A stretch of 64,000 nt of DNA from an uncultured virus (IMG/VR IMGVR_UViG_3300021387_003647) (lineage: Duplodnaviria; Heunggongvirae; Uroviricota; Caudoviricetes): IMG/VR virus record IMGVR_UViG_3300021387_003647; one strand, written 5' to 3'. The translations under genes and the position numbers were made by a program. This document shows positions 2,115 through 62,439 of this stretch, piece by piece. The number at the start of each line of letters is the position of its first letter. Position 1 is the stretch's first letter. The notes below the pieces were generated by a model, which ran no database searches, was not told where the DNA came from, and saw only the letters and a list, made by a program, of their open reading frames with translations.

Positions 2115-2828
2115 TTATGTTGTCGCATTATCATCGTCTTTACGAATAGTTCCCTCGTTAATCGGAATCGACAATTCATCAACAAGCAGTGTCGGGTCGG
2201 ATGCTTTATAAATTCGAGTACGAGTTTCCCCGTCATCAATATCGAAAGCAGTTGACTGCGAATCGCTCATTGCAAGTGTATTATTCCGTGTTGCTTCAGA
2301 ATAAGAAAGTGCTGAAGTATTATTGTTATTATTCTATGAATATGTTGGTGTATTCGCAGAAGGAGTTGAACTTGACATTGGAATATTGCTAACATCTGTT
2401 GAATAGAAATATGCAATTTCTTTTCTTCGTCTTCCAGTTAAAAGCCCTTTGCAAGTATATGAATTCAACCAAAGATTAATAAACTTCTACTTGTCTGTTT
2501 TCCACATTCCCGATTTTGCCGCTTTTCCAACAGCAGTCTTTGATACGGTGCCGTGATTATATGCTAATGAAAATAATGCACCGAATGCACCTTTTGGCAT
2601 ATCACTTGTCCATACTTTATTTACATCTTTTTCAAAACGTTGTTTGTCTTGATTAAAAAGACTTTGAATTTCAGCATCAGAATATATTTTATTCGGAATT
2701 ACATCTGGCCCATAGTGTCCTAAGCCAACTGAGAAATAACGTTCTGATTTCGTTGCTTTATACGGGCGACTGCGTTTTCCTTCCTCGCGGACTAAGAAAT
2801 TATAATCACTCTATGACAAACTACCCAT
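2115..2828 (-). CDS. GH24-type lysozyme/muramidase, 237 aa, 3 in-frame TAG (2811, 2487, 2334); absent from ORF track
   Basis: Manual translation MGSLS(Q)SDYNFLVREEGKRSRPYKATKSERYFSVGLGHYGPDV...FGALFSLAYNHG...GLLTGRRRKEIAYF matches the GH24 pattern (EG..PY..GxGH, ALxSxAYN, GLxxRRxxE). Confidence 0.88.
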
Positions 2829-2830
2829 CG

Positions 2831-3601
2831 TTACGTTGTCTAATTATTTCCGTTTGTTGATGCATCTTCTCGGAGAGTGCCTTCGTTCATCGGGATAGAC
2901 AGTTCGTCGAGTGTAATCTTCGAAGTAGATGCAGCATAGATACGAGTGCGATGACCGTTTTCATCATCAGCACCAATATCTCCTAATGCTGTTGCCGGAG
3001 ACAGTTGGTTACTCATCGCATCTGAGAACACGCTCTGGTCAACACTTGCTTCTTGCGCTCCAGCAATCGGAGCAACATACGGACTTTGATTATCCCACTG
3101 TTGTGGAGTTCCGTAAGTCGGTGTATAAGGAGCTGGAGCAGCAAGCGGACCAGCTCCACCAAGTCTCCAGAAAACAGTATAAGATTTGATTTTTGCAGAT
3201 CTCGTCGGTAGACCTCCGCGTGACACATTGTGATTAGAACCCCATGACCAAGAAGTGTGAGAACCATTTACTTTACCATTATAAATCTCTACGTGTCCGG
3301 GAAAAGCAATAATATCATACGGTTGAACAATATCTAAACTATAACGATATTGTTGGAATCCTGCTTTAGTCAGCAAATTATATAATGTTCCGCTTGTCGC
3401 AGCAAAGTCTCTTGAACAGAAACACTGCGATGTGCTGATATATCCTGCTACTCTCAAGCAACATGATACAAATCCGGAACAGTCTTTCCGGACATTTCCA
3501 GCATTAGGCAGTGGACAGCGAATCCAACCCGCTTGGTTATATTCGTTGATATTTTGTGCGTACCAGTTGCCGCACTGTTGTACTACTGAAGGCCAACTCA
3601 T
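2831..3601 (-). CDS. NlpC/P60-family cysteine peptidase/amidase, 256 aa (TAG at 2840 read through)
   Basis: DCSGFVS and GHVEIY catalytic motifs; TAA at 2831 lies 2 nt before the lysozyme ATG. Confidence 0.85.
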
Positions 3602-3684
3602 AATCTTACTATCGAATTATTTTGTGTATTTATTACGATAATTTTAGAATACTGCCCAAAGTGACCTATTAAATCGATTAAAAT

Positions 3685-3792
3685 TCATCTATCGAATGAG
3701 TTGCAAGTCGTCTATCGAACGGATTACAAATCGATTCTCGAACGATTTTGAAGTCATTCAATAGACGAGTTACCTATCGATTCAATAGATGA
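3685..3792. repeat. Four 12-bp TCRTCTATYGAA boxes, two direct and two inverted
   Basis: TCATCTATCGAA 3685, TCGTCTATCGAA 3708, TTCAATAGACGA 3757, TTCAATAGATGA 3781. Confidence 0.7.
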
Positions 3793-3809
3793 GTTCAGAC
3801 ACAACAAAA

Positions 3810-3832
3810 AGAGCACCCGTTTAAGGATGCTC
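3810..3832 (-). terminator. Intrinsic terminator (GAGCA..TGCTC stem, U-tract on minus strand)
   Basis: Hairpin just downstream of the stop at 3847. Confidence 0.6.
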
Positions 3833-3846
3833 TCAAATCTCTACTC

Positions 3847-7882: not shown

Positions 7883-7944
7883 GCTCTATTTATCAACGAA
7901 AAAATGGAGTTGTAATAACTCCGGTTTGCTATGATAAATAAGAT

Positions 7945-9207
7945 ATGCTGAGAGCAATCAAGATAAGACTATATCCAAACAAGACTCAAGCAGCTTAGTT
8001 CAATAAGTTGCTTGGGTGTTATCGTGTAGTCTATAATCAGTGTCTTAACAGAAAGATTGAATCATATAAGAATAGTCAAATATCAGAGAATCTGACTACA
8101 TTAGGTCATTTCGTTCATCACGAACTGTTGAAAGATGACAACTTCATCTGGCTTAGGGAACAGAACACGAAAGTTCTCAAACAAGCAGTGAAAGATATGC
8201 TTTCCGCATATAAGAACTTCTTTGAACTGCATTCCGGTTTTCCAAAGTTCAAGTCTAAACATGATAACAAACAATCTTGTAGATTTGAAAAACAAGCAAT
8301 TTCTAAGTGCAACGTATATACAGACTATAGAATTTCGCTTGCAAATATAAAGAACGTTAAGTTCAGATGCAGCAGGAAATATGCTGAATATCTTCAGAAA
8401 CACAGAGACTGCATCAGGCAGGCGACACTGAAGCGTCTGCCTTGCGGAGAGTATTATCTCTCAATCTTAGTTGACGGCTGTCTGACTCATCAAGTCAGAG
8501 AAACTAACTCTGCTATCGGTATCGACTTAGGAGTCAAAGATTTTGTTATAACAAGTGAAGGTGAAGTCTTTGATAATCTTCACTTCAAAAAGTTAGAACT
8601 GAATAAAATAAAGAAGTTGCAGAAGCAACTATCAAGAAAACAGAAAGGAAGCAACAACAGAAACAAAGCAAGAATCAGACTTGCCAAGTTATATAAGAAA
8701 ATAGATGATAGAAAACAATACTATCTTCACGAAGTAAGTAATTCGCTTATTGACGAAAACCAAGTCATTTGCATGGAGAATCTGAATGTGAGAGGTATGT
8801 CTAAGAACCATAAGTTAGCAGAGAGCATATTAGAGATGAACTTCGGAGAGTTCAGACGTATGCTTGAGTATAAAGCGAAGTGGTATAATAGACGAATAGT
8901 ATTCGTTGACAGATTCTATCCGTCAAGTAAGACTTGCAATCATTGCGGTTACATAAACAGGCAGTTGACATTGAAAGACAGAGAATGGGTTTGCCCGCAG
9001 TGCGGGCAAACAATCAGCCGAGACTACAATGCTGCTTGTAATATACTTGACGAAAGTTTAAGAATAATAGGGTGCAGTACACCCGAATCTAAGCTTGTGG
9101 AGAACCCAACTGTGGATGAACCAACTGGAAACAGTTCGCTAAAAAGCAGTGGCTCTGTGAAGCAAGAAGTCAATAAAGCACAATGTTCAACTATGTGCAA
9201 GTTTTGA
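7945..9207 (+). CDS. tnpB: TnpB RNA-guided nuclease (IS200/IS605-type, no tnpA nearby), 420 aa, TAG at 7996
   Basis: MLRAIKIRLYPNKTQAA(Q)FNKLLGCYR; RuvC GIDLG / ICMENL / RDYNAA; CNHC..CPQC zinc finger. Confidence 0.93.
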
Positions 9208-10749: not shown

Positions 10750-10843
10750 TGTTTTACTGTTTTATGCTGCAAAGACAGTGCCGACGAGTGCAATCGAACT
10801 TGTTCGAATTGCCGGGCGCAGCCTATTCTCGCACTTTCGAGTG

Positions 10844-10851
10844 CAAAGGTA
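10844..10851 (-). promoter_or_regulatory. Bacteroidota-type -7 box TACCTTTG
   Basis: Matches TAnnTTTG; -33 element weak. Confidence 0.55.
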
Positions 10852-11027: not shown

Positions 11028-14000
11028 TTAAGATTCACTGCCGCCACCGACGCAGTACAGTTCTAATTGTCTGAGTCTCTGTCTTCCCGGAGTTTCGGAA
11101 CTAGAACCCAAATACGTATCTTCGTATATGTATGGCTTGCCGCTTGGAACTGGGCAGGTGACAACAATCTTAAACATAGTTTTGTCGTCTGTTGGCGGAT
11201 TTACAAGTTTTACAGTACAGTATGCATTGACAACCGGTGACGCTGTCGGATTCGTTTGGGTATAACCGATGCTTCGTACTTCGATAGCATTTGTTTCTTC
11301 AACTTCTGCACCACTTTCGTTGCACCGCCAGAACTTAACGTCAGATGCTTGTACTTTATCAGCATCGGCCGGAACGATAAATGTTTCCGAAATTGTGCTC
11401 CATTGCTTATACTGATGCATGAATACGAACGTAAATTCATAGTCGTGTTCTGGAATGAATAATCCGTACGTCACATCGCCCAACACTATTTTTACTGTTT
11501 CCTCTGTAATATCAATGTTGCTAAAGGTACACATTGTCGGGAACGAGAACTTCTGTATGTACATATTGTTGTCAGCAGTTGTGATAACCAGGTTATACTC
11601 TTCATACGAACCGATGTGATAACCGTTTCTGGTTGTCCGACCGGTGAGTACGTGGTTTGAACCGTCTAATCCTGAACCTACCCATTGGTTGTCGCTGAGA
11701 GTACCGGTGAATATGTTTCCGAGTTCGTCGTTGTCCGTATTCGGATAATCGAACTTGATGCTCTCAATCTGATAGCCTTCGCCAGCTAGTCCACCGGGGA
11801 AGCAGTCGAAGTCTAACTGAAGGTCATTAAAACTATTGTATGCACTCGGCAGATTAAGCGTTCCTGCACCGTATTCCCAGAACTGATTATATTCGTAAGA
11901 ACTTCCGTCACCCTGTGGTGAACGTATCGAAGCCGTGTTGAGTCGTGCATACGCCAGATAGAATATTCGTGCCGTATTAAGACGTCCGACGGTAACTATC
12001 ATCGATATTGATGTCGGTAGGTCTTCGTAGTCTGGAATATCAGCAGTATTCGTCAGTGTGACATCTGTATAGAACAAATGGCTCTCTGAATCTTGCTGGT
12101 ATGCACTTACACTTACAGATACACAACTAGGCAATGTCATCGTTTGCTGAGAGGATGCATCTTCGAAACTGATATTCTCCGCAGTTATCAGCTGGTCTGG
12201 CTGAGTGTAGTCAGGAATGGTTCCGGTTGACTTTTGTGTAGCGTTCGTAATCTGAGTATGCCATACACGGATAGTCATCGTGTTACCAAGGTGTACCCCT
12301 AATACTTTATAACCCTCTGTAGGATCGGTCTTCAATTCAACAACATCGTCCAGTATATAGTCGAACGTATAAACTATTCCGGATGCATCATCCGGTAATA
12401 TAGCAGTATCATTGCTCGTTGTTACGATTTTAATTTGATACGGTTTTGATGCGTTCGAGTTCTTAGCAATGTAATATCCTTCTGCATCAGCACGCCCGAA
12501 CGTTCCGTCATATAATGAACCTATATCGACGGCTATATAATGTGTTGCATTGTAGAGTGCTCGTCTAGACTCATCAAGAGCACAAGTATACCACGGACGT
12601 CTATCTAAGAAGAAACGTGAGTTCTTACCAGTCTGACGATATGAATACAAGTTATTGTTACCGGGTACGATATGTGCTTTTGACTTATACGTCGGTGTAT
12701 TAATATCAACCTGCTCATCTATAAACTCGGGTATATTAGCGAAGATGATAGCTACACTACCGCGAGCCGGCATCTTAACTGGGCCGCTCATAGTGTTATC
12801 CCATATAGTAACAGGATCCGTTATTCTCGGATTTCCTCTAAAGACGCTAATATCCTGCGCTCTGAGAATCTTAACCAGGCTTATTTGGCTGACACTCACT
12901 CTACCGGTTACTGCCGGTATCCAATATCTGGACTGGGCAGAATCGATGCTGAGTGTAGCGGTGATGGTGCCTTCGGGTGCTTCCGGACTCTTGTTGCTTC
13001 TCAGCGTATAGAGACCGGTGGGCGATACGGATGCGATGACGACATCGCGGTCGCTGGTGGCCAGTCCGATAGTTCCGCCGTCGTATGCCCAACCCAGGTT
13101 GTAGATGGTGCCGGTGACAGGGTTCGTGGTGGTTGCCGAGATGCCGCCGCCACAGTTGATGCCGTCCTGACGCGATACCACACCGCCGCTCGACTGATAC
13201 TCGCTGGCATTGACGGTGACAGTGGTCGTCTCGTTGTAAGCGGGCTTCAGGTTGGCACTGCCGGCATTCAACTGGACTACCGGACCGACGATGCCGACGA
13301 ACGACAAGTCGTAGGTCTTCGTTGCTCCGCCGCCCGTTGCCAGATAGACGAAGTGAACCCGGAACGTAATCTGCTGGCCGGTATAGAACATTGCTCCGCT
13401 GGTCTCGTTGTATCCGTACAGATCCTCGTCCACATCGACCCATACTTGGAAACTGGTGGTGCCGGTGCCGCTCTTGTTGAGTGTGAACGGCTGAGACAGT
13501 CCGCTGTCCATCGACGGTGTGATGTCGACGATAGTCTGTGCCAAAGGAATATGTCCGGTGACAACAATGGCCTCGCCCCAACTGATAGGACTTAGCGGAA
13601 TGTTGTTCTTGCCGCCCGTCCATGCCGTTGAGGACTGTCCGTTGTGGAACGTGATACTGTCGATGACCACCACTTCTGCTACGAGCAGTTCCGACGACTT
13701 GTTCGGATACCAGTGGTTGATGTTCTGGCCGGCGATGCTGACAGTACCGGTGATGGTTCCCTGCTGCGGGGCACTTGCGCTGGTGACTTCAATGGTCCAG
13801 GCACCGCCGTCGTTCTATACTTCGTGGTCGCCGCCAGGCGGAGTCCACGTGGTAGGTTGTGTCAGCGAGAAGTAGTCGCTGATGTTGTTCGTGCCGCCGG
13901 TGTATGTGAACGTAGTGGTGACATAGTGGTTGATGCCCGTATAGTCCGCCGCATCGATGATGGCTGCGTTGTTTCCCACACGGTGTCCGCTATGGATGAT

Positions 14001-17000
14001 GGCTGAGCCGTTCCAGTACCACTCGTGGGCGCGGTTCATGAAGCACTGGAACACCTGTCCCTGCTGAGGCTTCAGTGAAGTGTCGGTGCTCCATATCTGA
14101 CAAGCATAGGTGATGACCGGTCCGACCTTCAGTTTCAGCGGCGAATCGAAGAAGTCCGCAGAACCGTCCCTCTTGATATGTACGTTGAATGGAATCTCCT
14201 GGTAGGAATGGTAGATGGGGTTGGTGGCCGAGTCATGGTCGTCGGAATAGGTATCGTTGACGTGGGACAGGTCGTCGCCAACTTTGACGTGGAACACAGC
14301 ATTGTAGTCGCTGGTGCCGCTGACGGCTTCCACTGTACCGGTCAGTGTAGAGCCGTTCTGTAGTGTGGCACTGACGGGCATGAACGTATTGCTGCTGTCG
14401 GCCAGGGAGAGTCCGTGACCGTCACGGAACTTCGCATAGATATGCAGCACGTTCTCACCGGAGCCGGAGCCGCGCTTGATGGGCGACAACAGTGCACCGT
14501 CCAGGTTTGTAGAAACGGCTTCGGTGTTGCCGTTCCACCATTTCACCTGGTGGATAGTAAACATCTTCGAGCAACTGAGTGTAGCATACTTCGTTGACTT
14601 GCCGTCGTACCAGTGCATCATGCTGATAGCCGCTGTGCCGTCAGAGACTTCTACCCTACCCAGCAATGTTCCGTCGTTGATGTTGTCTTCATCGACTACA
14701 GTGATGCGCCAGACACCGCCGTCCTTATAGTAATGCTGATGACTGTCGTCGGCCGCAGTCCACGTAGCAGCGTGCTGTACGGTCATCAGCACCGTAGTGC
14801 CATCGGTGTCGCGAACTTCCCACTGCTTGTCGTAGTTGTATGGTTCGTCGCCGGGAGCGAACGTATCCTGATGGGCTTCTGCCGGTGTAGGATTCTCTGT
14901 AAGCGAAATACCGGTGGGATACTCCCACATAACATTGAACTGTCGGCCCGTATCGGTAGTGATGCTGCTGCTGATGGCACCGTTGCTGGTAGAGACGATG
15001 TCGTTCTCGGCGTTCTTGAACCACTCGTGACCGCGCAACTGTGCAATGGTGAAGTTGTCGTTCTGTATATTGAACGCAGCATCACTGGCATTGCCAAGCA
15101 GCGGTAGGTTGTTGTGGAGTGTGATGACCGGACCGAGCTTAACGGAATAAGTAACGTTCAGTGTTCCTCCTCCACCGGCTGTGGTACGCGGAACACTTAC
15201 CGTGAATTCAACCGGCATTCCGGTGTAGTACCAGCGAGTGTCGTCATGGTCGGAAACACCACCGAGGTCGGCCAGTGTACTGAACTTAACAACTAACTGA
15301 TAGTCGGTACCGGAATGAGTTGCTATTGTTGTAGAGATATGCGTCAGACGTGTGTCGTTGAGTGCTACGGAGGCGTCTGCTGCGTTGTAGTTGCCCGGTA
15401 TGCGTAACTTCAAGCGAATCTCTACGCAGTTGTTTTCTGCAACCGGCGACAGGTATGCAGTATCCAGGTTTGTAGTTTCCTGTTTTGTAGTTGAACCGTC
15501 GCTCCAGAATACTTTCTGAATAATCATCTCGCGTGCTGCAATTGCCGAAGCAGTCTTAATGGTTGTAGTTCCTACTTTCAACGATGAAGTGAATGTACGA
15601 GCATCAACAACATCATCTTCCGCTGTTACGTGATAGCGGATGCGGTTGTTTGTTGTAGAATCCGGTCCACTGACAGTGATAGTCAGATGAGTCAGGTCGC
15701 TGACCTGTGTATCGCCGGTATTCGGGACACCCGTATTGAACGTCGGGTCGCCTTGTGCAGCATCGGGCAATCGACTGCTAGTCTTTGTGCGGATATGATA
15801 TACCAAATCTACATCAGTCTGGCCGGCATTGTTGATTGAGAACGACTCGCTTGTATAACCGAAGTGTATAACAGGCTGAATCTTGAACGTAGCATCTGCA
15901 TCAGCTCCAAGACTAATGTTTGTATCATAGACATGGACTCTCATTGTGTATGTCTCGTCGCTACTGAAGAACTCAGTGCCGCCTTCTTCGATGGGAACTT
16001 CCCACAAGTCGCTTGATGTGGTAGTAACTGAGAACTCATAGACATCGGTCTGACCGGATACTGCCGTTGCCGAACTGACTGTAGTGAACATACGGCTGAG
16101 ATTCTTGCTTCCGGAAATAAACGACAGAGTTGCTGTATGAGTAGAGTCAATTGGGAACGGTGACTTGAAGCGAACTTTGATGTTCACACCAGTAGAGTAG
16201 TTCTGTCCAGGCAGACGCTCTGAAATTGCCTTGTTGCGATCGCCTACAGCAGTCAGTGTTGCAGCAGTCAACGATGAACTGCCCAACGGTTTGTACTGTA
16301 CTTCTGTAATGGTGAATTCACCGAGAGATGATTCTACATTAGCAGACATCGTAAACGTAGTAGCCGTATCGTCGACTGTTGCCTTGAACGCATTCTTTGC
16401 ATCAGCAGAACCGGCACCCGGAGTAAAGTCCAGGAACTTAGCATGACCGTCGCCTGTAGTACCATCGATAATCAGACCGGTAGCCAGCGTCTCACTGTAT
16501 GACGTGCCGTTGATGCTGACGCTTATCTTGTTGTCGAATGTACCGGAATTCAAGACCCAAGTATTTGATGTAGTATTCCATTCCATACCCGGCTGCATGA
16601 TACGCAACATAGGAACCGGCTTCACACTGTGCTTGGTGCCGGTGGAGTCGGTAAATTCAGGACCGAACACGAAAGTACCGTCAGCCTCTGTGCTAGCTGA
16701 CGACAACGTGCGGGCTTCTTCATAATAAAGTTTAGAATCATTATGAGCCCATCCGTTGCTGCTCTGCCATATGTACTGTCCTTGCTTCATATGATAAGCA
16801 ATGATTTTCAAAGTGCCGCTTCCGGTAATACTTAACTTGACAGTTCGAGACGGGAACGATTGTACGTCACCGTGGAGAGATATTCCGCTATATGTAAATA
16901 CATTGGTAGTAATCGGGTTGTCAGTGGTTGCTTCGAGTGGTTTGAAATAATCAGAACATAGCAGTTTCTTGATACCGACGGATTCGACTATTAATCTCCA

Positions 17001-19400
17001 GCCGGGAGACCAACTGTTGATAATCATTTCAGTAGAACCGCCTTCACTTGTAGCATCGCCAGCGAACTTATAAGTCACTGTACCAGGAACAACTGACGGC
17101 TCAGTTGTCAATATTTGTCCGCCGGTCACAGTAATTCTGTTGTACTTAAGACGGAACGTTGCACTATCCGGCCAGCCAGTTGTCGGATAACGCAAGACAA
17201 CTACGTGGTCATAGATGTTGAATAAGTCAACTGTGACAGTCATCTCCCGGATATTCGGATTCAATATGATAGTATCATCGACGAAGCTTTTCTCTTCTTC
17301 TACCTTCTTCTTTCCGAGCCATTTCTTATGAGCACCGTAATCTACGTAAACATCAGCCCAGTTGTAGATAGTATGGTAACTAGCATTACGCTTAATCTTA
17401 AGTATCAATGACGGCTGTTCTGCTGAACCGGAAGCCCACGGACGACTAGACGGGAATCCAACCTGGAAATCTCCAGTAGTTGTAACTAGATAAACAGTGA
17501 AGTCGCCAATATCTTTAGAATCAGGAGTCTCGAATTTAATGGTAACAGCAATCACAGGCCGTACATACAGACTTATATTATTGTTTAATGTTTTCTTATA
17601 AACAATATCTTTGAAGTTAGCATCAGTCGGCGGATCAACTGTATCGCTCTCGGGAATAATTATATCGCCCGGCGCCCAGCTGTCAGTACCAGAACTGACA
17701 TATATATTAGTATAATCACTTTTAGAGCTAGCAAACCCATAGTTCTGGAACTTCAAGGTAAAGTAACCCGTCGCTGCATCAAAGTCAGATTCGTGAGTCT
17801 CATACTGCACGAACCAGAGATTATCGTTAATCTTATAGAGTTTGTATATGTTATTGTCACTAGAGAAATATCTACGAGCATCGTCTCCGTTAATCAGGCT
17901 TTTGGTACTTACTCGGAACTTCTCCGGGTCGGAGTATGCTACGTAAATCTTCACATTCTGACTCTTAAACAGTTCTTTAGCACGTAATGCGATGTGATAC
18001 GGACCTTTCGAGTTGGTAATCTCTGTACCGCTCTGCTGTATAGTATAGTCGAGTGTTCCGTTCTTGACAATATAATTGCGTCCGGGAATCGGTTTAGCGA
18101 CATAGCCTTCATCAGCAAACTGCCAGAACAAGTCCGGTTTAGACATATAAAGGTCATAAGAAGATGCATCGTACCAGACAGTACTAGAATCTGATGTTGA
18201 CGGGTCGAGTGTCGTAACAGAATAATGCACCTTAAACGCTGAATCATCGTGCGTTCCCAAGAGCGACATTTCCGGGCGCTCGAACTGGATGTCGTTGATG
18301 AGCGAGACAGACACTCGCCAGGCTTTCGGGTCGGAGGGCTGCGTCTTGATGCGTCCCAACGTCTGAGGAGACATCAGCACGATGCTGTCGCCGTCGTTCT
18401 TGCCGATGCTGGCATCCGGAATATTCTTCAGTTCCACGATGTCGCGCACCACAACATTGCCGTCGGAGTGCAGGATAATCTTGGCAGAAGGAATCTTCTG
18501 GCCGATGATGTAGTAATAGGTATCGTGGGAAAGATTGCTGACAGAGACCGTGCAGAGCTTGAGACTGGAGCGGGAAACACTCCACGAACCGGTGTCGGGA
18601 GTGACATCGGCACACTCGTAGGTGAAGGTCTTGATGCTGCTGGCTTCGCTGTAACTAGCCGGCAACACATGCTCGTGGAACTTGGCGATGTTCTCGCCGG
18701 TAGCGGCACTGTCGTCAACTACGTAGATGTCGGCACTCATATGGAGACCGTCCTTGCAGCGGAACTTTATCTGCTGGTACTCAGTGGTCTGCATGTTGTG
18801 GACGAGTTCGGCAGTGCTATCATAGTTGCGGGGCTCGCAGATGAACTCGATGTCCTGAAGGATGACCGTGACACTGCGGTCTGGAATCATCGCGGTGACA
18901 TCAGCAGAAGCCGGAACCTGGTTGGTACGGTAACGGCGGTTGGTGCCGGGAATGATACGCTCGCAGGTCATGCGCGGCAACTGGTCATCTTCGCCGTTGA
19001 AGAGATAGGTGCCGGTGGCAGAGCCGTTCTGGAACGTCACTTCGATGGTGTTGCGGGTGACTTCGGTGAACGAGACAGCACGGTCGTGGGGCAGGTTGGC
19101 AATCTTTGTGATAGCAGTGACTGCATCGACCGGGCCGGAGCCGTAGTACGTCTGTTTGATGTCGGGAGCATACGGCAATGCCTTGGCAACCAGTCCGCCC
19201 AGTGTCTCAACCTGACGGCGGGTGGCACCGGAATCTCCGCCGGCAGCAAAAAGCATATCGGGAGTGTCGAGAAGTTCTTCTTGAACTTCTTGAACATCCT
19301 GAGCGTTGTCTGGAGCGTTCTGCTCGGCGGGAACATCCGCGAGCACTGTCTTCCGTTTCTTATCTGTTGTTGTATTCTGTGTAGATTTCTTACGAGCCAT
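11028..19400 (-). CDS. Giant (~2790 aa) Thr/Ser-rich virion fibre/adhesin-like protein; one in-frame TAG at 13815
   Basis: ORFs 13815..19460 and 11028..13673 share a frame; the bridge (Q)NDGGAWTIEV...INHWY copies an internal repeat (DGGVWRITV...MMHWY); ATAAATA at 19427-19433; function inferred from composition. Confidence 0.75.
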
Positions 19401-19458
19401 CGTTATCTGAAAGCAGTATTTTGGTTTATTTATCAACAGAATCTCAGCAGTGCGAAAC

Positions 19459-24118: not shown

Positions 24119-24224
24119 AAGCACGTTAATTATTGTTTTTTGCTGCAAAAATAATACATTTCCGGCAATGTTGTATCATTATTGCTGATAATTTAGGTAT
24201 TTTTAGGAAAACGTCTAAAAACAA

Positions 24225-44947: not shown

Positions 44948-45031
44948 ATATGTACAATTTTTAAATTCACAGTGCAAAGATAAGCATTTTCTTTTAACAG
45001 ACAATGCATTTGCTGTAAGATTTAGGTTTCT

Positions 45032-45727: not shown

Positions 45728-45734
45728 GTCTTAT

Positions 45735-47065: not shown

Positions 47066-47478
47066 TGTTTTCTTCGTTCGTAAAATTCTTCTTTTGCTTT
47101 CTCAAATATTTCTTCCCAGAGTTCTTTATCCTTGTGATATTGCTCAAATGCTTTTTCGAGGACTTTTTCTACTTCATCAACAGTCCCGTCAATGAAGTGT
47201 GCTACATTCTTCTTATAATATTCGTCCCACACATACAGAACACAGAATTCTGTCTTTGGTCGGACTACTGCCGGCCAGTCATCATCGTATTTTGACATCT
47301 GTTCGAACTTAATACATCTACTGATGTCCGATAGTTCGAAATGAGTATCACTTGACAGAGACGGACGATATGTTTCTCCGTCTGATGTCCCACTTGTAAG
47401 ATTCCACTCAGGCAATATGACGCTTGCGTGAAAATCCGAGAACATATATGGTTTACTGTAACGTTGTACTATTTTCAT
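47062..47478 (-). CDS. Hypothetical protein, 138 aa; start codon lies in the tnpB element right end
   Basis: MKIVQ is encoded by the shared ATGAAAATAGTACAA. Confidence 0.7.
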   Translation of the reverse strand: MKIVQRYSKPYMFSDFHASVILPEWNLTSGTSDGETYRPSLSSDTHFELSDISRCIKFEQMSKYDDDWPAVVRPKTEFCVLYVWDEYYKKNVAHFIDGTVDEVEKVLEKAFEQYHKDKELWEEIFEKAKEEFYERRKQ

Positions 47479-48974
47479 AAAATTTATAAATTCTAATTAA
47501 ATCTATAAATTATACTACTCATTTCGTGCTCTGTCTGTTCTACGGATTTTTAAATCCTCGAACATTCAGAACACATGGTGATACAACGTCACCTCTATCC
47601 AGTAAACTGACCAAGTCAGTATTCTGTATTACATTTGCTTTTCGCAATATCCCGACTGCACCGTTGCAGTCGGCATTCAACAATTTTCCAATTGATGATT
47701 TGAATAGACCACGTTTTGTTCTCTTTCCTAAGTATGAATCGTGATGTTCCATCACTTCTCCAGCCAAGTGGTCACACTTCGAAGTGTAACTCTCTTCCAC
47801 TTCAATGAATTCTATTCCGGCTTCTTCAAGTTTATATTTCAACTTAAATATAAATTCAGAATGTGGAATTGAACAGAATAATCGATTGTTTTCTTTTCCA
47901 ATATTCGATTCATTCTTCCAGAATTCATTATGACCTATAATAACTTTACCTATACCATTCTCTAAGCAATAATCTCTTATCATACTGCTCACATTATGAA
48001 TATAGTTGAATTTATAATTATTATAGTTGAAGAGAATTCTATTCATTCTCCTTGATAGTTTCACTTGTTTTAATAACCCATCTTTACGAGAAACTTTAAT
48101 TAGTTCTTTGTTTTTCGATGTCAAGATACAAGACTATAGATAAGCCATTGAGTTATTTGTCTCATTGATTTTTTGTTTCAATTCGCTGCCGCGAATGATG
48201 AAAGAATCTTCTTTGTCTAAACCAAACGTCACACAAGTCACTAAATTTTTGACTCCTAAATCGATTCCCAAAGTTTTATCTTTTAAAACAACTGGTTGTG
48301 ATTTGACTTTATTTTCTCTTAACTCATCAATATATTTTAAATTCTAATCATATATAAATGTAATCTTGAACTTATAATCATTTATAAATCTGATTTTAAG
48401 CATTACAATCCATTCTTTCTTTAGATTAGACGGAATTGTAATTTCATAATTCGTTCGAGGAATACCGATTTTATTTTCATTAGATACTTTCTTTCGAAAT
48501 CTTGTTTTATCTATTGAGACTATATTATGTGTTTTCTTTCTATATTTGTATTTAGGCATTTTGGGTTCACCTGTGTATTTTTCTGGGTGAACTCTGTAGT
48601 CTTTCTTTGTCTTAATCCAACCAAACCAGTTATCATATGCTTGACTAATGCATTGTTTCTTCACATTAATATCTAATTTAGAATTCTGAAATGCATTAGT
48701 TGGGTTAACTAAATCAAACAAATCAAATTTTGATGGATATTTCGGGATTTCAGACCAATTTAAATCTCTGCATCTGAAATATTCTTGACGAAGGAAATAC
48801 AGTCCCTAATCATAGAGCGAAACAGAATCTACGGTCATATCGTTTAACCGCTCATCGTAATTGACAAACGTGTGAACTGAACGGAGAAACTGATTATTCT
48901 TGCTCATATACTATTTATCATAGAATTTCACAAAGTTGAATCATTATATTTTATTTACTAACTTAAATATATTC
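47464..48974 (-). mobile_element. tnpB-only element, copy B
   Basis: Highly similar to 33259-34762 along its length. Confidence 0.85.
47519..48907 (-). CDS. tnpB: TnpB, 462 aa, 4 in-frame TAG (48806, 48344, 48134, 47540)
   Basis: Same RuvC motifs as copy A; TGA at 47519. Confidence 0.9.
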
Positions 48975-49042
48975 ATCGAATAAAGAAGAGCAGTTCTGAA
49001 TCTCTCAAAAACTGCTCTTCTTCTTTGTGTTGTACGTTTCGT

Positions 49043-49762: not shown

Positions 49763-49793
49763 ATTGTTTGTTCAAAATTTCTTTGTATTTTTG
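49763..49793 (+). promoter_or_regulatory. Bacteroidota-type promoter ATTG-N19-TATTTTTG
   Basis: -33/-7 consensus. Confidence 0.6.
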
Positions 49794-49816
49794 CAGCGAA
49801 TTTAAAATTTATAATT

Positions 49817-51017: not shown

Positions 51018-51224
51018 TCAACCTGAGTGCTCTTCTGTTTCTAAGTTAATAGACATATTCAAATCGTATTCAGATTCTGAAATTAACAGAGTATCTAGTT
51101 CATCTGCTATATCAAGAATCTATTTCTATAATTCTCGAACTCTCTCTGCTTTCGGTCCGGTAATATCAGAATACATATCCAGGTTCCGAGCATTCTCTCT
51201 TAGTATTGTTGTAAAACTCTTCAT
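51018..51224 (-). CDS. Small coiled-coil protein, 68 aa, 2 TAG; absent from ORF track
   Basis: RVREL(Q)K(Q)ILDIADELD; GAAACT-N17-TATAAT upstream. Confidence 0.65.
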
Positions 51225-51344
51225 ATATATTATACTCACGAAACGAAATAAAGTTTCTGAGGAAATTTCCGAATACAAGTAATTTATTATTCTGTTAAGA
51301 AATCGAAAAATTTTCGTATTCGTGAAAAATTTCTTCGAAAAAGT

Positions 51345-51375
51345 TTTGTCGGTTCAAAAATAATATGTACCTTTG
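51345..51375 (+). promoter_or_regulatory. Bacteroidota-type promoter TTTG-N19-TACCTTTG
   Basis: Consensus match; near-duplicate at 53323-53353. Confidence 0.8.
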
Positions 51376-51400
51376 CACCAGAAACGAATAATATACAAAT

Positions 51401-53145: not shown

Positions 53146-53173
53146 ATTCTTTAATTTTTAATCGTTTTGTTTG

Positions 53174-53205
53174 CAAAGGTACGAATAATTTTCTACCCAT
53201 ACAAA
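53174..53205 (-). promoter_or_regulatory. Bacteroidota-type promoter TTTG-N20-TACCTTTG
   Basis: Consensus match. Confidence 0.75.
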
Positions 53206-53322: not shown

Positions 53323-53353
53323 TTTGCCGGTTCAAAAATAATGTGTACCTTTG
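53323..53353 (+). promoter_or_regulatory. Bacteroidota-type promoter TTTG-N19-TACCTTTG
   Basis: Consensus match. Confidence 0.8.
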
Positions 53354-53381
53354 CGGCAGAAATTTTAATATATTAGAAGTT

Positions 53382-57886: not shown

Positions 57887-57926
57887 AATGCTTTGTTATT
57901 TCGTTATACATTTATTAATTATAGTG

Positions 57927-57958
57927 CAAAGATAAACATTTTCTTTCTAACCTGCAAA
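57927..57958 (-). promoter_or_regulatory. Bacteroidota-type promoter TTTG-N20-TATCTTTG
   Basis: Consensus match. Confidence 0.75.
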
Positions 57959-59279: not shown

Positions 59280-59542
59280 GCTTCTTTTAGATTTGATACA
59301 AATATCTTATACGGGTCTTTGACATTATCTTTATCTTCTGGTTTACAACACACAATATGAATAATTGGTGCCATTGTTCCTTCAGATATTGTATCTATAC
59401 CGAATGATTCAAGATATTCTATTTTTCCTTCAGGAGATACTTTCTCAATAGAAATATTGAACCGTTTCGATATTTCATCGAACTGTTCCGGATTCTGTTC
59501 TCTTAACGAAATCCAGGGTGCTAATAAATCGTGTAATGTCAT
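59276..59542 (-). CDS. Hypothetical protein, 88 aa
   Basis: Between lemA and the TPM gene, ATGA overlap. Confidence 0.7.
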   Translation of the reverse strand: MTLHDLLAPWISLREQNPEQFDEISKRFNISIEKVSPEGKIEYLESFGIDTISEGTMAPIIHIVCCKPEDKDNVKDPYKIFVSNLKEA

Positions 59543-59551
59543 ACTTGTAAC

Positions 59552-60148
59552 TTAATTAAATTCTACTTTAGGCGCTTTGCTTGCATTCTCGTCTGCTTCG
59601 AACTTCGTCATTTTCTCGAAGCCGAACATATTCGCAAAGATGTTGTTAGGGAATGCACGGACAGAGACATTGTAACTCTGAACTGCTTCGTTGTACTTGC
59701 GGCGTGACTCATTGATTCTGTTCTCACATCCTTCGAGCTGGCTCATCAGGTCGGAATATAGACTTGAAGAGACTAGTGTCGGAAAATTCTCAGAAACTGC
59801 TAACAAACGTCCGAGAGCAGCGCTTAACTCTCCTTGTGCTTTCTTGAATTGCTCAAGTTTTTCTGGAGTTAAGTTTTCTGGGTCGATTGTAATTTGAGTT
59901 GCTTTAGCACGAGCTTCAGTTACTTTAATAAAAGTTTCTGATTCATGCTTCGTGTACCCTTTTACAGTCTCAACTAATGACGGCACTAAGTCCGCTCTTC
60001 GCTGATATGATGCTTCTACATCAGCCCACGAAGTTGTGGCTTTCTCCTGGTTAGTCACTAAACTATTATACGAGCAACCCGTATAACAGAACAAAATTAC
60101 GATAATGCCAATAATAATGTGGCTTGTCTTGATACTTTTAAAATCCAT
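59552..60148 (-). CDS. lemA: LemA-family protein
   Basis: YNSLV...YQRRADLVPSLVETVKGY..HE...ENRI...RRKYN...FPNN. Confidence 0.93.
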   Translation of the reverse strand: MDFKSIKTSHIIIGIIVILFCYTGCSYNSLVTNQEKATTSWADVEASYQRRADLVPSLVETVKGYTKHESETFIKVTEARAKATQITIDPENLTPEKLEQFKKAQGELSAALGRLLAVSENFPTLVSSSLYSDLMSQLEGCENRINESRRKYNEAVQSYNVSVRAFPNNIFANMFGFEKMTKFEADENASKAPKVEFN

Positions 60149-60182
60149 TTCTTTAATCTTTTAATTTTATAATATTCTACTA

Positions 60183-60211
60183 ATATTACTTCAAAAAATA
60201 AGAAAAGTCTA
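60183..60211 (-). promoter_or_regulatory. Class II promoter TAGACT-N17-TAATAT
   Basis: 17-bp spacer upstream of lemA. Confidence 0.55.
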
Positions 60212-60351
60212 AAATACGGATTTTCTTTAAATAAATAATTTGTTATTATGACTTTTAATAACAATATGATTTCATTCTCTGCGTTTTCAATTTTGAAACG
60301 CAGAGTTTTTGATAAATAGTATAGAAATCATATTTTATAATTAAAAGTTAT

Positions 60352-62439
60352 ATGCTACAAAAAGAGTTTATTAATAAAATTAAAGAATTATACGGAGATT
60401 TATATGAATTCATAAATCTTCCAGAAATCGTATGTAATAATACAAAACTTGAAGTGTATTGCAAGAAACATAATTGTACGTTCAAAACAGTTTGTTATCA
60501 ATTATTAGAAAAGAAACGTTGTCCAGAATGTATTATCGATGAAAATACTGAACGATTCATTGAACGAGCGAAAGCAATACACGGCGATAAGTTCGATTAT
60601 TCTAAAACGAGATGTATCAGAACCGATGATAAAATCGAAATAATATGCAAAGAACACGGTTCATTCTTTCAACTTCAGTCTAATCATCTAAAGGGTCAAG
60701 GTTGTCCGTATTGCTCTGGTAATGCAAGAATGACAAAGGATGAATTCTTAAAAAGAGCACACGAATTATTCGGTGACACTTATGATTATTCTAAAATCAA
60801 AGACTCTGATGTTAAGAATAGAAATTCTATAGTAACTATTATTTGTAGAATACACGGAGAGTTTCAGCAATCAGTACATAATCATTTAAGAGCAGATATC
60901 GGTTGTCCAAAGTGTGCAGGAAATGCTCGTTTAACAGTAGAATCTTTTATAGAAAAAGCACGAAAAGTCCATGGTGATAAGTATGATTATTCAAAAGTAA
61001 CCGAAATACATAACAATCATCATAAAGTTACAATTATTTGCCCAGTGCATGGAGAATTCCAGCAAACACCACAAAATCATTTAAACGGAACTGGTTGTCC
61101 GAGATGCATTGGTTTATATACAACATTCGATGAATTCCTAAAAACGGCTAAAGAAGTATATGGAGACAAATATGATTATTCTCTTGCGAAAGAAGATTTT
61201 GTGAATATGTCTAAACCGATAAGAGTGATTTGTCCAACACATAGAATATTCGAAATTGTTCCAACTGTTCATGTGCGTTCAAGATGTGGATGTCCCAAAT
61301 GTTCTCATATGAGTACAGAAGAATTTATAGAAAAAGCAAAAGAAGTACATGGTGATAAGTATGACTATTCAATTACTGAATATATAAATTCTTCTACTAA
61401 AATAGCGATTATATGTAAAGAACATGGTGTATTTTATCAATTTCCGTATTCTCATCTTAAAGGATTTGGATGCAGATTGTGTAATATGAAATATCCCATA
61501 AGAACAACAGAAGACTTTATCAGAATAGCATCGGAAGTTCATAATAATTTCTATGATTATAGTAAAACAATATATATAAATACAAAAACTAAAGTAATAA
61601 TAACTTGTCCACAACATGGTGATTTTGAATAGATGGCATATGAACATTTAAATGGACATCGATGCCCAAAATGTTCAGGGAATGTATTTATACCGTTTGA
61701 AGAATTCATTGAAAGAGCAAGAAAGATACACGGTGACAAATATGATTATTCTTTAGCAAGATATGATTACAAAAACAGCAACACGAAAGTTAGAATTATT
61801 TGTCCAAAACATGGTATATTTGAAATTTCTCCAAGTTCACATATAAATGCACAATGCGGGTGTCCGAGATGTTCTCGTCGTTTAGTGACTACTGAAGATT
61901 TTATAGAAAGAGCACGAGAGGTTCACGGAGATAAGTATGATTATTCATTATCTGAATATACGGGCAATAACAACAAATTGATAATCATTTGTCCAAAACA
62001 CGGACCATTCGAACAAATACCACATAATCATCTTCGTGGTCATGGATGTTCTCGTTGCCGTTCTTTGCAATCAAAGATATTGTTGACAGTATTAAATGCA
62101 TTAGAAGAAAACAATATATCGTATTCTGTAGAAAAGATATTCGATTGGCTGAAAGACAAGAGTTATTTGAAACTTGATGTATATCTTCCTGATTACAATA
62201 TTGCTATTGAATGTTAGGGTTATCAACATTTTAGTCCAATACCGATGTACGATAAAGACAATGATAACTTCGAGAAACGAACAAGAAGAGACAAAATAAA
62301 ATATGAGTTATGCAAAGAGCATAATATTCCCGTATTATATTATGCAGAGAAAGAATATGTTTCAGATTACTTTGATAAGATATATACAGATGTCAATGAG
62401 ATAATTGAATATATTTTAAATACAAAAGAGCACTCTTAA
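60352..62439 (+). CDS. Free-standing homing-endonuclease-like protein, 695 aa: 9 DUF723-like zinc-ribbon repeats plus a Vsr/PD-(D/E)xK-like domain; TAG at 61630 and 62215
   Basis: HGDKYDYS...CPxHG.F.Q....HL.G.GCPxC repeats; LDVY...IAIEC(Q)GYQHF; three ORFs in one frame. Confidence 0.87.

Follow-up and report, generated by a model that had tools for sequence, protein, structure and literature searches.

Genes, in-frame TAG codons and upstream motifs of the window

The 64,000-nucleotide stretch analyzed here (the window) is a piece of the genome of a giant gut phage in which TAG is read as an amino acid. With TAG taken as a sense codon, 69 protein genes were curated from ORF lists, a codon-usage score, start-codon checks and Pfam. 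None of them ends in TAG, and 15 carry in-frame TAGs, 30 in total; three TnpB genes and a zinc-ribbon gene hold 14 of these, and both the 30 and the 14 agree with an earlier note on this DNA. Four of the 30 are among the final 10 codons of a gene. A tRNA search did not find a suppressor tRNA within the window. RNA-library contigs that match the window are of low depth, and timing, strand and starts are not readable from them.

The genes were sorted by three upstream motifs, which are themselves objective, while the promoter classes are our reconstruction and were assigned with the TAG positions known. Class I is the Bacteroidota-type TAnnTTTGC (8 of 19 occurrences no more than 80 nt ahead of a start, P = 6e−7), class II a GTAyAAT-type pattern (8 of 10 occurrences within that distance) and class III the T4-late-like ATAAATA, the most enriched 7-mer upstream of the window genes (14 of 20 occurrences at most 80 nt before a start, P = 2e−15). 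Class III weight-matrix scores are bimodally distributed, and the motif lies either 32 to 40 nt or 11 to 14 nt before the ATG; the shorter spacing would yield a nearly leaderless mRNA. Late promoters of phage T4 carry TATAAATA at −10 and are recognized by gp55 together with gp33 and the sliding clamp. In the window, too, the ATAAATA core is preceded by T or G. The genes behind it include lysis genes, fibre-like genes and large genes of virion type, and in the megaphage Lak-C1 genes of a portal, head protease and tail fibre. The two ATG spacings in the window are a difference from T4.

Distribution of TAG over the promoter classes

Class I comprises 23 genes in nine units behind TAnnTTTGC, and none of their 4671 codons is TAG. 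On the plus strand, a −7 box (TAAATTTGC) found by motif scan at 39870..39878 precedes a six-gene unit that includes a Nudix gene (39932-43701), and further boxes precede a GIY-YIG/T5orf172 gene (box 49786..49794, gene 49817-50473; GC3 0.18, 218 codons), orf257 (box 51368..51376, gene 51401-52174) and the unit of orf89, orf405 and RNase H (box 53346..53354, unit 53382-55429). On the minus strand, boxes lie at 57926..57934 before a DUF262/GmrSD_N gene (56978-57886) and orf112 (56633-56971), at 53173..53181 before orf313 (52204-53145), at 44974..44982 before a three-gene unit (44947-43756), at 24145..24153 before a membrane ORF, orf114, RtcB and orf67 (24118-22015), and at 10843..10851 before orf225, orf231 and a tRNA-Arg(CCG) (9278-9352). 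DnaB (35433-37001 within 35400..37001, plus strand), which has the class II box GTAGTATAATTTATAGA and is 41% identical to a Lak phage DnaB, has no TAG either. The earlier note had stated that genes behind class I promoters and dnaB are free of TAG, and this holds for the full set.

Most TAGs lie in class III units. On the minus strand, ATAAATA at 3627..3633 is located 32 nt before an ELLD hydrolase gene (2831-3601), whose sole TAG is codon 254 of 256, three codons ahead of the stop; a lysozyme gene comes next (2115-2828), in which three of the seven Q codons are TAG (codons 6, 114 and 165). A second motif (7887..7893) lies 11 nt upstream of the ATG of a GT-like gene (6482-7882; TAG codons 9 and 463), downstream of which are orf446 (5145-6485; codon 327) and orf433 (3847-5148; no TAG). 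The gene of a 2790-aa fibre-like protein (locus 11028..19434, ATG at 19400; codon 1862) is preceded by GATAAATAA at 19426-19434. The unit at 24274..31155, behind TAATAAATAA at about 31149-31155, encodes a 1744-aa protein (25887-31121; codon 33) and then a 533-aa protein (24274-25875; codon 213). On the plus strand, a zinc-ribbon endonuclease-like gene with DUF723 repeats (60352-62439 within 60312..62439; GC3 0.21; codons 427 and 622) has GATAAATAG 40 nt upstream. Of 14 genes that directly follow a class III motif, five lack TAG, namely orf96, DUF1810, orf285, orf111 and orf369 (600..1750, minus strand; GATAAATAA at 1742-1750), and all five genes with the arrangement ATAAATA-N4-ATG carry it.

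The earlier note had placed TAG in class III units, which stands, and also in four genes under class II control, a share that shrinks to two TAGs: one in orf158 (32243..32719, minus strand; codon 107) and one in orf93, downstream of PspC (39247..39528, minus strand; codon 20). The gene orf231b (45032..45738, minus strand; codons 20 and 26), which has a CATAAATAA of its own 11 nt upstream of the ATG, was reassigned from class II to class III. The gene orf86 (51018..51278, minus strand; codons 51 and 53) scores weakly as coding sequence, lacks a clear promoter motif and is followed by a terminator; it was left unclassified. A head-protease-like gene lies in a class II unit without TAG; its Lak-C1 homologue stands behind ATAAATA and has TAG at none of its 22 Q codons.

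Among Gln-type codons, TAG accounts for 0 of 169 in class I, 2 of 143 in class II (21 genes) and 26 of 350 in class III (19 genes). Class I differs from class III at the level of codons (Fisher P = 4e−5), from non-mobile class III genes (12 of 282, P = 0.0046) and in the number of genes with TAG (0 of 23 versus 12 of 19, P = 5e−6); the difference between classes I and II in the window is not significant (P = 0.21). Such a pattern might arise from base composition or from the calling of pseudogenes and wrong ORFs. GC3 does strongly affect the TAG frequency, and within class III TAG makes up 21 of 121 Q codons at GC3 below 0.42 versus 5 of 226 above, so the earlier caveat that AT-rich genes may simply accumulate TAG is half right. 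However, GC3 is nearly equal in classes I, II and III (0.50, 0.48 and 0.47). A logistic GC3 model fitted on the other classes predicts 7.6 to 9.6 TAGs in class I, where none is observed (P between 3e−4 and 2e−5, clustering ignored), and the class I deficit holds when whole genes are permuted within strata of Q count and GC3 (P = 0.008). Class I shows no shortage of out-of-frame TAGs, with 9.9 and 4.3 per 1000 codons compared with 9.7 and 6.7 in non-mobile class III. GC content alone, which the earlier note had named as a possible refutation, is hence not sufficient. Over-long raw ORFs that ran into promoters did give false N-terminal TAGs (codons 7-8 of 38222-38614, the GTG start of TnpB-B and codon 24 of 6482-7957), but the TAG-bearing ORFs are free of TAA and TGA over up to 2790 codons, and Pfam matches span the TAGs.

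Lak-C1 and the published recoding models

The segregation extends beyond the window. In the whole genome of Lak-C1 (549 ORFs), TAG is present in 4 of 55 genes directly behind TAnnTTTG (5 of 226 Q codons) versus 87 of 112 directly behind ATAAATA (549 of 1635 Q codons; Fisher P = 4e−19), or in 5 of 97 versus 130 of 172 genes with operon-mates included. The corresponding values are 25 to 59% for control 7-mers and 29 to 58% for control −7 variants, with a baseline of 40%, and the class effect persists when Q count and GC3 are controlled for (likelihood-ratio P = 1.5e−7). Reading TAG as sense raises the coding density of Lak-C1 from 52% to 85%. The relative L001 has three TAGs, each in a unit preceded by an ATAAATA-type motif, and 10 class I-box genes there are free of TAG. 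Given the GC3 model, the class counts, the out-of-frame TAGs and the Lak-C1 controls, an origin in composition or gene calling is largely refuted, and we consider it highly improbable.

A PHROGs scan of 29 Lak-C1 TAnnTTTG genes gave eight matches, none of them structural (DNA/RNA/nucleotide metabolism, 3; auxiliary metabolic gene and host takeover, 2; other, 2; unknown function, 1), and 12 ATAAATA genes picked by eye include a portal, a head protease and a tail fibre. The Lak-C1 ATAAATA class also has a helicase, an exonuclease and a sigma factor and is therefore not purely structural.

Lak megaphages of Prevotella, as described in the parts of Devoto 2019 (PMC6784885) considered here, leave TAG unused over large parts of the genome and use it, as Gln (code 15), at structural-protein regions. 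Lak-C1 has two tRNA(CUA) genes in one stretch, with upstream neighbours at 185.5-190 kb that lack TAG. Both upstream motifs peak at equal distances in Lak-C1 and the window, and the 1744-aa protein is 40% identical to a 2514-aa Lak-C1 protein. TAG in the window phage likely means Q as well, judging from alignments: of 47 window residues that align with a TAG codon of Lak-C1, 11 are Q (background 3.9%), and TAG codon 18 of TnpB1 has Q as its counterpart in 8 of 14 homologues from viral contigs as well as in one Lak-C1 copy. The two phages differ in GC content (42% in the window, 26% in Lak-C1), and recoding is far lighter in the window (15 of 69 genes versus 218 of 549 ORFs; TAG at 4 to 7% of class III Q codons versus about 34% in Lak-C1 ATAAATA genes). 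Because core shared genes have only about 40% protein identity, the window does not come from a Lak genome but from a distant relative.

According to the sections of the Borges 2021 preprint used here (10.1101/2021.08.26.457843), early genes can be read with the standard code, as can the code-change genes themselves, and recoded stops occur in structural and lysis genes. The preprint describes lysis genes, which are strongly recoded, and a homing endonuclease as significantly biased to recoded codons; production of this endonuclease, which is intron-encoded, is expected to be delayed to the late stage. Genes are sorted there by function and position, in contrast to the promoter motifs used here; section 8 of the preprint does not mention TnpB or IS elements, and the word "promoter" is absent from the parts of the Devoto, Crisci and Borges texts considered. 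The window also departs from this model in that the lysozyme is rich in TAG, yet the second hydrolase is in effect ungated.

TnpB elements and the meaning of the segregation

All three TnpB genes have ATAAATA 11 nt before the ATG. TnpB1 (7945-9207 within 7934..9207, plus strand; TAG codon 18) is, at the protein level, 75 to 78% identical to two Lak-C1 copies and 65 to 86% identical to copies in 19 viral-contig loci. TnpB-A (33303-34694; 7 of 15 Gln-type codons are TAG) lies in IS copy A (33258..34770, about 1.51 kb, minus strand), and TnpB-B (47519-48907; 4 of 14) in IS copy B (47464..48983, minus strand), whose DNA is 84% identical to copy A; the motif is internal to both copies. At its right end copy A has an outward-facing class II-like box ahead of orf181, and copy B a similar one ahead of orf138. 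The Pfam matches (HTH_OrfB_IS605, OrfB_IS605, Cas12f1-like_TNB), the multiple copies and a 265-bp deletion derivative are those of IS200/IS605-type TnpB elements; no TnpA gene was found beside the window TnpBs. What sets these TnpBs apart is the phage late-type motif directly before the ATG together with in-frame TAG, with which a full-length product is made only where TAG is suppressed.

Taken as a whole, the observations are best explained, with good confidence, by a large Bacteroidota phage, a distant relative of the Lak megaphages, that uses code 15 and a tiered transcription programme. We likewise regard it as probable that tiered transcription combined with an early/late code switch explains the TAG segregation. 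From the motifs and TAG counts we infer the timing of each promoter class, a suppressor tRNA in the phage genome and the direction of selection. Host-type promoters (TTTG ... TAnnTTTGC) would be transcribed by the unmodified host polymerase, and class I genes would be translated at a stage with active host release factor 1 and without suppressor tRNA, so that in-frame TAG would be purged by selection. As class I has TAG neither in frame nor as a stop, its genes read alike under both codes. Genes behind ATAAATA would be expressed after a phage suppressor tRNA(CUA), presumably encoded outside the window, becomes available; in these genes CAG-to-TAG changes would be tolerated and accumulate, chiefly in AT-rich genes. 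Late, lysis and IS-encoded genes that bear TAG could then not be finished early.

The earlier note went further and proposed a lock, with TAGs placed early in the frame of lysis genes and mobile nucleases to block their production before the code switch. The early TAGs it listed were found (lysozyme, GT-like, TnpB1 and 1744-aa protein); counting TnpB-A/B together and adding orf231b, six gene entries have their first TAG in the first 8% of the protein. The TAG content of all ATAAATA-N4-ATG genes, the seven TAGs of TnpB-A compared with about 1.5 at its GC3 (a hand estimate from the GC3 model), the lysis and homing endonuclease bias in the Borges preprint and a slight TAG excess at codons 21-60 of Lak-C1 class L genes (110 of 237 Q codons versus about 35% further in) point the same way. 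However, the N-terminal clustering is marginal, with 9 TAGs in the first 35 codons versus 5.8 expected from Q-codon positions (P = 0.05; 0.07 without the paralogue TnpB-B). Four TAGs sit at gene ends, and the only TAG of the ELLD hydrolase cannot gate its protein. A dedicated lock on mobile nucleases is not supported: the GIY-YIG gene stands behind a class I promoter without TAG, among 14 full-length viral-contig homologues of TnpB1 8 lack TAG, in-body TAGs of others at 129 and 169 are not shared with position 18, and the TnpB1-type copies of Lak-C1 have 0 to 1 TAG despite 34% TAG in late-gene Q codons there. In addition, TAG makes up only 4.3% of non-mobile class III Q codons versus 43% for the analogous synonymous pair, TTG/(TTG+CTG). 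We therefore consider an adaptive lock unlikely.

Somewhat more plausible, though still tentative, is that on top of the early/late rule the TAG-richest genes owe their excess to history, as inheritance from AT-rich, heavily recoded relatives or as AT-biased drift. The genes in question (TnpB-A/B, zinc-ribbon endonuclease, lysozyme) are AT-rich, atypical in codon usage and probably mobile; they have the lowest GC3 (0.21 to 0.33) and the lowest own-codon-usage scores. Within class III TAG is concentrated at low GC3, and the 29 to 47% TAG of TnpB-A/B is near that of the ATAAATA genes of Lak-C1. The identity of TnpB1 to Lak-C1, far above the 28 to 44% of seven other shared proteins, shows IS exchange between the two phage lineages, and the 265-bp derivative, 96% identical to IS copy B, recent mobility. 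Against this history, no close relative of TnpB-A/B was found in the phage collection (at most 36% identity), nor an exact match to the IS end in viral contigs, so no donor can be named; and AT-rich class I genes (GIY-YIG; orf123, GC3 0.25; orf59, 0.19) are free of TAG, so composition alone is not enough.

The early/late code switch by which we interpret the window is a model already published, including the homing endonuclease, in the parts of Devoto 2019 and Borges 2021 considered here. Our analysis adds resolution at the level of promoters, and TnpB elements that carry TAG together with a late motif. We read the segregation mainly as constraint on early genes and drift in late genes, with which a role of TAG as a safety catch can coexist.

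In-frame TAG codons and promoter classes

In-frame TAG codons segregate by promoter class in this phage, and the segregation is real, statistically sound and generalises to the complete genome of a relative. An earlier note had claimed this pattern and read it as a possible translational lock on late genes and mobile nucleases. We curated 69 protein genes by codon-usage score and inspection of start codons, which left 30 in-frame TAGs in 15 genes, in ORFs free of TAA and TGA. This is the number the note had given, and the codon positions quoted there are all right. Fourteen of the TAGs lie in TnpB1 (1; 7945-9207, +), TnpB-A (7; 33303-34694, −), TnpB-B (4; 47519-48907, −) and a zinc-ribbon gene (2), and the carriers also include the lysozyme (2115-2828) and the fibre-like, 1744-aa and 533-aa proteins. 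N-terminal TAGs of raw ORFs that overran promoters were artefacts (codons 7 and 8 of 38222-38614, codon 24 of 6482-7957, and TnpB-B with its GTG start). The 69 genes end in TAA (48) or TGA (21) and none ends in TAG, the ORFs having been called with TAG as sense and four TAGs lying at most 10 codons before the stop.

The promoter classes were rebuilt independently of those in the note, operon-mates being given the class of the nearest motif upstream; the assignment was made with the TAG positions already known, which is a weakness. ATAAATA is the top enriched 7-mer upstream of genes, with 14 of its 20 occurrences on both strands at most 80 nt before a start (P=2e-15), all 14 at a distance of 11 to 40 nt. 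By weight matrix, 14 genes score at least 10.6 and all others at most 9.5, with spacings of 32 to 40 nt or 11 to 14 nt. The late promoter of phage T4 has a TATAAATA-like −10 element, and the putative class III promoter, with the site consensus (T/G)(G/A)ATAAATA(A/G), resembles it. Class I has the motif TAnnTTTGC, found 31 to 62 nt before a start in 8 of 19 occurrences (P=6e-7) and a ninth time (10843-10851) 102 nt upstream of orf225; TTTG or TTG is seen by eye upstream of these −7 boxes. The housekeeping sigma factor of Bacteroidota uses promoters with TTTG at −33 and TAnnTTTG at −7, a consensus that class I, as a predicted promoter of this type, matches. The class II pattern, GTAyAAT-TwrTAG, lies at most 80 nt before a start in 8 of 10 occurrences and is a predicted extended −10-like box. 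We moved orf231b from class II to class III because its ATG has a separate CATAAATAA 11 nt upstream, and left orf86 and HU-HIG2, which have no clean motif, unclassified.

At five sites (7887-7893, 7934-7940, 34699-34705, 45732-45738 and 48912-48918) the arrangement is ATAAATA-R-NNN-ATG, the motif standing 11 nt before the ATG, and all five genes bear TAG. If transcription starts there as at T4 late promoters, mRNAs from such sites would be almost leaderless. Two more sites of this spacing occur in L001, a relative from a metagenome contig (about 15225 and 17663), before genes without TAG.

None of the 169 Gln-type codons (TAG, CAG and CAA) is TAG in the 23 class I genes (4671 codons, GC3 0.50); the corresponding counts are 2 of 143 in the 21 class II genes (GC3 0.48), 26 of 350 in the 19 class III genes (GC3 0.47) and 12 of 282 in the 15 class III genes that are not mobile (GC3 0.51). 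Classes I and III differ by Fisher's test at the level of codons (P=4e-5) and of genes (P=5e-6), as do class I and non-mobile class III (P=0.0046 and 1.3e-4, respectively), and among genes directly behind a motif TAG occurs in 0 of 9 in class I vs 9 of 14 in class III (P=0.0026). Classes I and II do not differ significantly in the window (P=0.21). TAG-free early genes and TAG in structural and lysis genes are what the code-switch model expects, the timing being taken from promoter type. Within the window, class III is labelled "late" on the strength of its lysins, its large proteins and its motif, because PHROGs, run on 22 window proteins, matched only head-protease-like and portal-like fragments. 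A family of paralogues of about 400 aa, with an acidic N terminus of the type (N)IFEDFLDRY (window 3847-6485 and 53652-54869; L001 15244-20206), has members without TAG behind class I promoters and with TAG behind class III promoters.

Could base composition produce the same pattern? The caveat of the note, that AT-rich genes may simply accumulate more TAG, holds within class III, where low GC3 raises the TAG share of Gln-type codons (21 of 121 below a GC3 of 0.42 vs 5 of 226 above), but not between classes, whose mean GC3 is equal. GC content alone, which the note had named as a possible undoing of its claim, fails as an explanation. Logistic regression of TAG on GC3 in the other classes predicts 7.6 to 9.6 TAGs in class I, where none is observed (P=3e-4 to 2e-5, with clustering within genes ignored), and permutation of class labels within strata of Gln-type codon count and GC3 gives P=0.008. 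Out-of-frame TAGs occur 9.9 and 4.3 times per 1000 codons in class I vs 9.7 and 6.7 times in non-mobile class III; in class I, TAG is purged from the reading frame only. The TAG-free class I genes include AT-rich ones, such as the GIY-YIG gene (GC3 0.18), orf123 (0.25), orf59 (0.19) and orf114 (0.28).

A distant relative of the Lak phages and the pattern in Lak-C1

With TAG read as sense, the window holds intact ORFs of up to 2790 codons. Pfam identifies two lysis genes, that of the lysozyme and that of a hydrolase resembling endolysins. Its mobile nucleases are GIY-YIG/T5orf172, the three TnpBs and an endonuclease-like zinc-ribbon gene with DUF723 repeats. Enzymes acting on nucleic acids are DnaB, RtcB, Nudix, RNase H and a nuclease of the PD-(D/E)XK type, and further matches are to GmrSD_N/DUF262, HU-HIG, PspC and LemA/TPM. 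The sole RNA gene found, with Rfam included, is a tRNA-Arg(CCG); a suppressor tRNA(CUA) was not found within the 64-kb window. Contigs from RNA libraries (one sample, three runs) gave 21, 4 and 1 pieces on parts of orf369, orf433, orf446 and the fibre gene, at low depth and with DNA carry-over possible.

DnaB shares 41% identity with its counterpart in the Lak megaphages of Prevotella, whose genomes measure about 540 kb, and seven other window proteins are common with Lak-C1, a complete Lak genome of 549 ORFs. Membership of the Lak clade was considered and rejected: the identity of these shared core proteins (28 to 44%) and the GC content (42% in the window vs 26% in Lak-C1) point to a distant Lak-like phage of Bacteroidota and not to a Lak genome. 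Near-identical DNA was not found in the phage collection, nor were close relatives of DnaB among the viral contigs.

The window phage probably uses genetic code 15, with TAG read as Gln. Opposite TAG codons of Lak-C1, the window has Gln in 11 of 47 cases, vs a background of 3.9%, followed by Arg, Lys and Glu. TAG18 of TnpB1 aligns with Gln in 8 of 14 homologues from viral contigs and with Met in the other six, as well as with Gln in one Lak-C1 copy, and Pfam matches run across the TAGs of both the lysozyme and the TnpBs. In Lak phages, TAG is assigned to Gln in the available text of Devoto et al. 2019 (PMC6784885).

TAGs common in early genes elsewhere in the genome, which by the earlier note would speak against its claim, were sought in two relatives, Lak-C1 and L001, and were found in neither (4 of 55 and 0 of 10 early-class genes, respectively). 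In Lak-C1, reading TAG as sense raises the coding density from 52% to 85%, and before starts ATAAATA peaks at 30 to 39 nt (79 genes) and TAnnTTTG at 40 to 49 nt (28 genes). Directly behind TAnnTTTG, TAG accounts for 5 of 226 Gln-type codons in the 55 genes; directly behind ATAAATA, 87 of 112 genes carry it (549 of 1635 codons). With operon-mates the counts are 5 of 97 and 130 of 172 genes (Fisher P=3.5e-32, compared with 4e-19 for the genes directly behind a motif), and in four of the five TAG-bearing early-class genes TAG lies within the first 11 or last 25 codons. Other 7-mers at the same distance give 25 to 59% of genes with TAG, variants of the −7 box 29 to 58%, and the baseline is 40%. 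The effect of class holds after control for Gln-type codon count and GC3 (likelihood-ratio P=1.5e-7).

A PHROG scan of Lak-C1 covered 29 of the 55 early-class genes and 12 of the 112 late-class genes, the latter picked by eye and thus a biased, small and nonrandom set. Eight of the 29 matched (three DNA, RNA and nucleotide metabolism; two auxiliary metabolic gene and host takeover; two other; one unknown function), and no structural PHROG was among those 29. The 12 late-class genes include those of portal, head protease and tail fibre and also helicase, exonuclease and sigma factor genes; the sigma-70-family gene (phrog_351) sits behind an ATAAATA motif. In the window, no gene was identified as coding for a late sigma factor of the gp55 type or its co-activators. 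The two tRNA(CUA) genes of Lak-C1 have upstream neighbours without TAG, in a stretch downstream of an early-type promoter region. Between them (184533-185512) lies a series of short ORFs, GIY-YIG-like by eye, with several in-frame TAGs and seemingly interrupted.

The scan of metagenomes gave three loci, of which L001 alone was of use. This 21.6-kb part of a metagenome contig has just two regions in common with the window, DnaB and LemA/TPM, the former 84% identical in DNA. As a small sample, its 10 genes behind three class I boxes lack TAG, and its three TAGs in confident genes, likewise few, all lie in units behind ATAAATA-type motifs, two of these motifs having the arrangement ATAAATAG-N3-ATG. 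About 370 nt of L001 (13256-13625), immediately downstream of a class I promoter, have no convincing ORF and may be a noncoding RNA gene; a 507-aa protein with a vWA-like motif, seen by eye, follows.

Some intergenic features of the window deserve mention. Three copies of a terminator-like hairpin, AAGAGCACT-CAACCnG-AGTGCTCTT, lie in a stretch of 1.7 kb (50479-50503, 51010-51034 and 52174-52198). Before an HU-HIG gene with no assigned promoter class, 39061-39246 contains about five copies of a ATATACTRTATATT box, which may be operator sites. Upstream of the hydrolase unit, 3602-3846 (245 nt) has several direct repeats of the type TCTATCGAA...CAA(A/G)TCG ahead of the class III motif. Between convergent genes lies a GC-rich gap of 246 nt (55430-55675) with visible self-complementary stretches and no Rfam match.

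TnpB elements and the question of a lock

All three TnpBs contain PF01385 and PF07282, the RuvC-like OrfB domain and the zinc-finger TNB domain expected of the IS200/IS605 family (E values of 3.7e-20 and 3.5e-25 in TnpB1, and of 6e-13 to 1e-10 in TnpB-A and TnpB-B). TnpB1 is 75 to 78% identical to two copies in Lak-C1 and 65 to 86% identical to copies at 19 loci on large viral contigs, and its family has apparently proliferated in large AT-rich phage genomes. One viral contig of 82.7 kb has four copies 65 to 68% identical to TnpB1 of the window, and several others have two.

TnpB-A and TnpB-B belong to two copies, A and B, of an insertion sequence (IS) of about 1.51 kb that are 84% identical; its ends were set by comparing the copies and a 265-bp derivative, and Rfam has no match in the IS region. 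The derivative (31738-32002, −) arose by internal deletion, its left 94 nt and right 172 nt each being 96% identical to copy B; it retains ATAAATA, with the first tnpB codons fused to the last, and lies between orf99 and the head-protease-like gene. At the right ends of the IS (33258-33310 and 47464-47520, −) an outward class II-type box, GTAGTATAATTTATAGA, is followed by ATGAAAAT, the start of orf181 and orf138, and the insertion site of copy A is immediately behind a further class II box (GTACAATTAGTAG); the IS may replace the promoter that it cuts off. The protease-like and portal-like genes (31174-31629 and 32727-33272) may be short forms or remnants adjoining the IS copies. The match to a head maturation protease covers the N-terminal domain only (151 aa vs 584 aa in Lak-C1; phrog_207, E=2.8e-22), and the similarity of the 181-aa ORF to portal proteins is weak.

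Were the TAGs placed as a purpose-built lock on nucleases? The first TAG comes very early in several genes (codon 6 in the lysozyme, 9 in a GT-like gene, 18 in TnpB1, 20 in orf93 and orf231b, 33 in the 1744-aa protein, and 34 in TnpB-A and TnpB-B), and in the window TAG is present in 5 of 5 ATAAATA-N4-ATG genes, as a lock would have it. However, the clustering at the N terminus is marginal, with nine early TAGs observed vs 5.8 expected from the positions of Gln-type codons (P=0.05, or 0.07 without a paralogue), and four TAGs lie within the last 10 codons of genes, a C-terminal clustering with a P of 0.12. The note had listed both hydrolases among the TAG-bearing class III genes; both do carry TAG, but the sole TAG of the ELLD hydrolase (2831-3601) is codon 254 of 256, so this gene is not gated. 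Moreover, TAG makes up 4.3% of Gln-type codons in non-mobile class III genes, vs 43% for TTG in a comparable synonymous pair, TTG/(TTG+CTG), and is therefore tolerated late, not favoured.

Nor is the extension of the lock to mobile nucleases supported. TAG is absent from the GIY-YIG gene of class I and so goes with the promoter rather than with function, and the TnpB1 family has no conserved lock: of the 14 full-length copies in viral contigs, eight lack TAG and three have TAG in the body of the gene at codon 129 or 169, in no case at 18. The data thus do not support a lock built on purpose for nucleases. Late-class genes of Lak-C1 have a mildly higher TAG share at codons 21 to 60, which could reflect some selection on position. 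TnpB-A and TnpB-B, both AT-rich, are also rich in TAG (7 of 15 and 4 of 14 Gln-type codons), above a hand estimate from the GC3 model. Heritage and selection are indistinguishable as sources of this excess because close relatives were not found, with identities of at most 36% in tblastn against phages and no match in an exact search of viral contigs for the IS ends.

In both TnpB families, ATAAATA stands 11 nt before the ATG, inside the element. Taken together, these features allow a tentative reading, which we think is rather doubtful as a whole, that the TnpB ISs are specialised residents of TAG-recoded megaphages. A late motif before the start codon and an in-frame TAG would mean that the nuclease is completed only late and only in a cell that suppresses TAG; TnpB1 would move between Lak-like lineages whose core proteins are about 40% identical, and TnpB-A/B would bring an outward class II-type promoter. 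If this were true, TnpB activity would be confined to the phage and silent in hosts with the standard code, and the outward promoter would restore the expression of the gene in front of which the element landed.

The code-switch model and what the segregation means

The explanation of the segregation is the known early/late code-switch model (Devoto 2019; Borges 2021), and the basic picture is already in print. In the text available, Devoto et al. 2019 (PMC6784885) describe TAG-free regions, TAG-using structural regions, tRNA(CUA) and RF2 in Lak phages. The preprint of Borges et al. (10.1101/2021.08.26.457843), in its available text, proposes the standard code for early genes, with recoding serving to coordinate the late ones and to keep lytic products from being mis-expressed; a bias towards recoded stops is also reported there for a homing endonuclease. 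These passages cover the main idea of the earlier note and, in principle, its extension to mobile nucleases. What is new is the resolution at the level of promoters and the TAG-bearing TnpB elements with a late motif. The word "promoter" is absent from the main texts of Devoto 2019, Crisci 2021 and the Borges preprint, and a literature search for TnpB with recoded stop codons in phages gave nothing on the subject by title and the beginning of the abstract.

The code-switch idea is sharpened and becomes testable, as the presence or absence of TAG tracks ATAAATA vs TAnnTTTG in two distantly related megaphages. The pattern helps to choose the promoters and the tRNA for the first tests, allows the genes of uncultured recoded phages to be sorted into expression classes from the sequence only, and offers guidance to gene callers that face two codes in one genome. 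RNA-guided TnpB nucleases reside in recoded phages with the phage's own expression signals, which is relevant to the adaptation of mobile elements to a host with a different genetic code.
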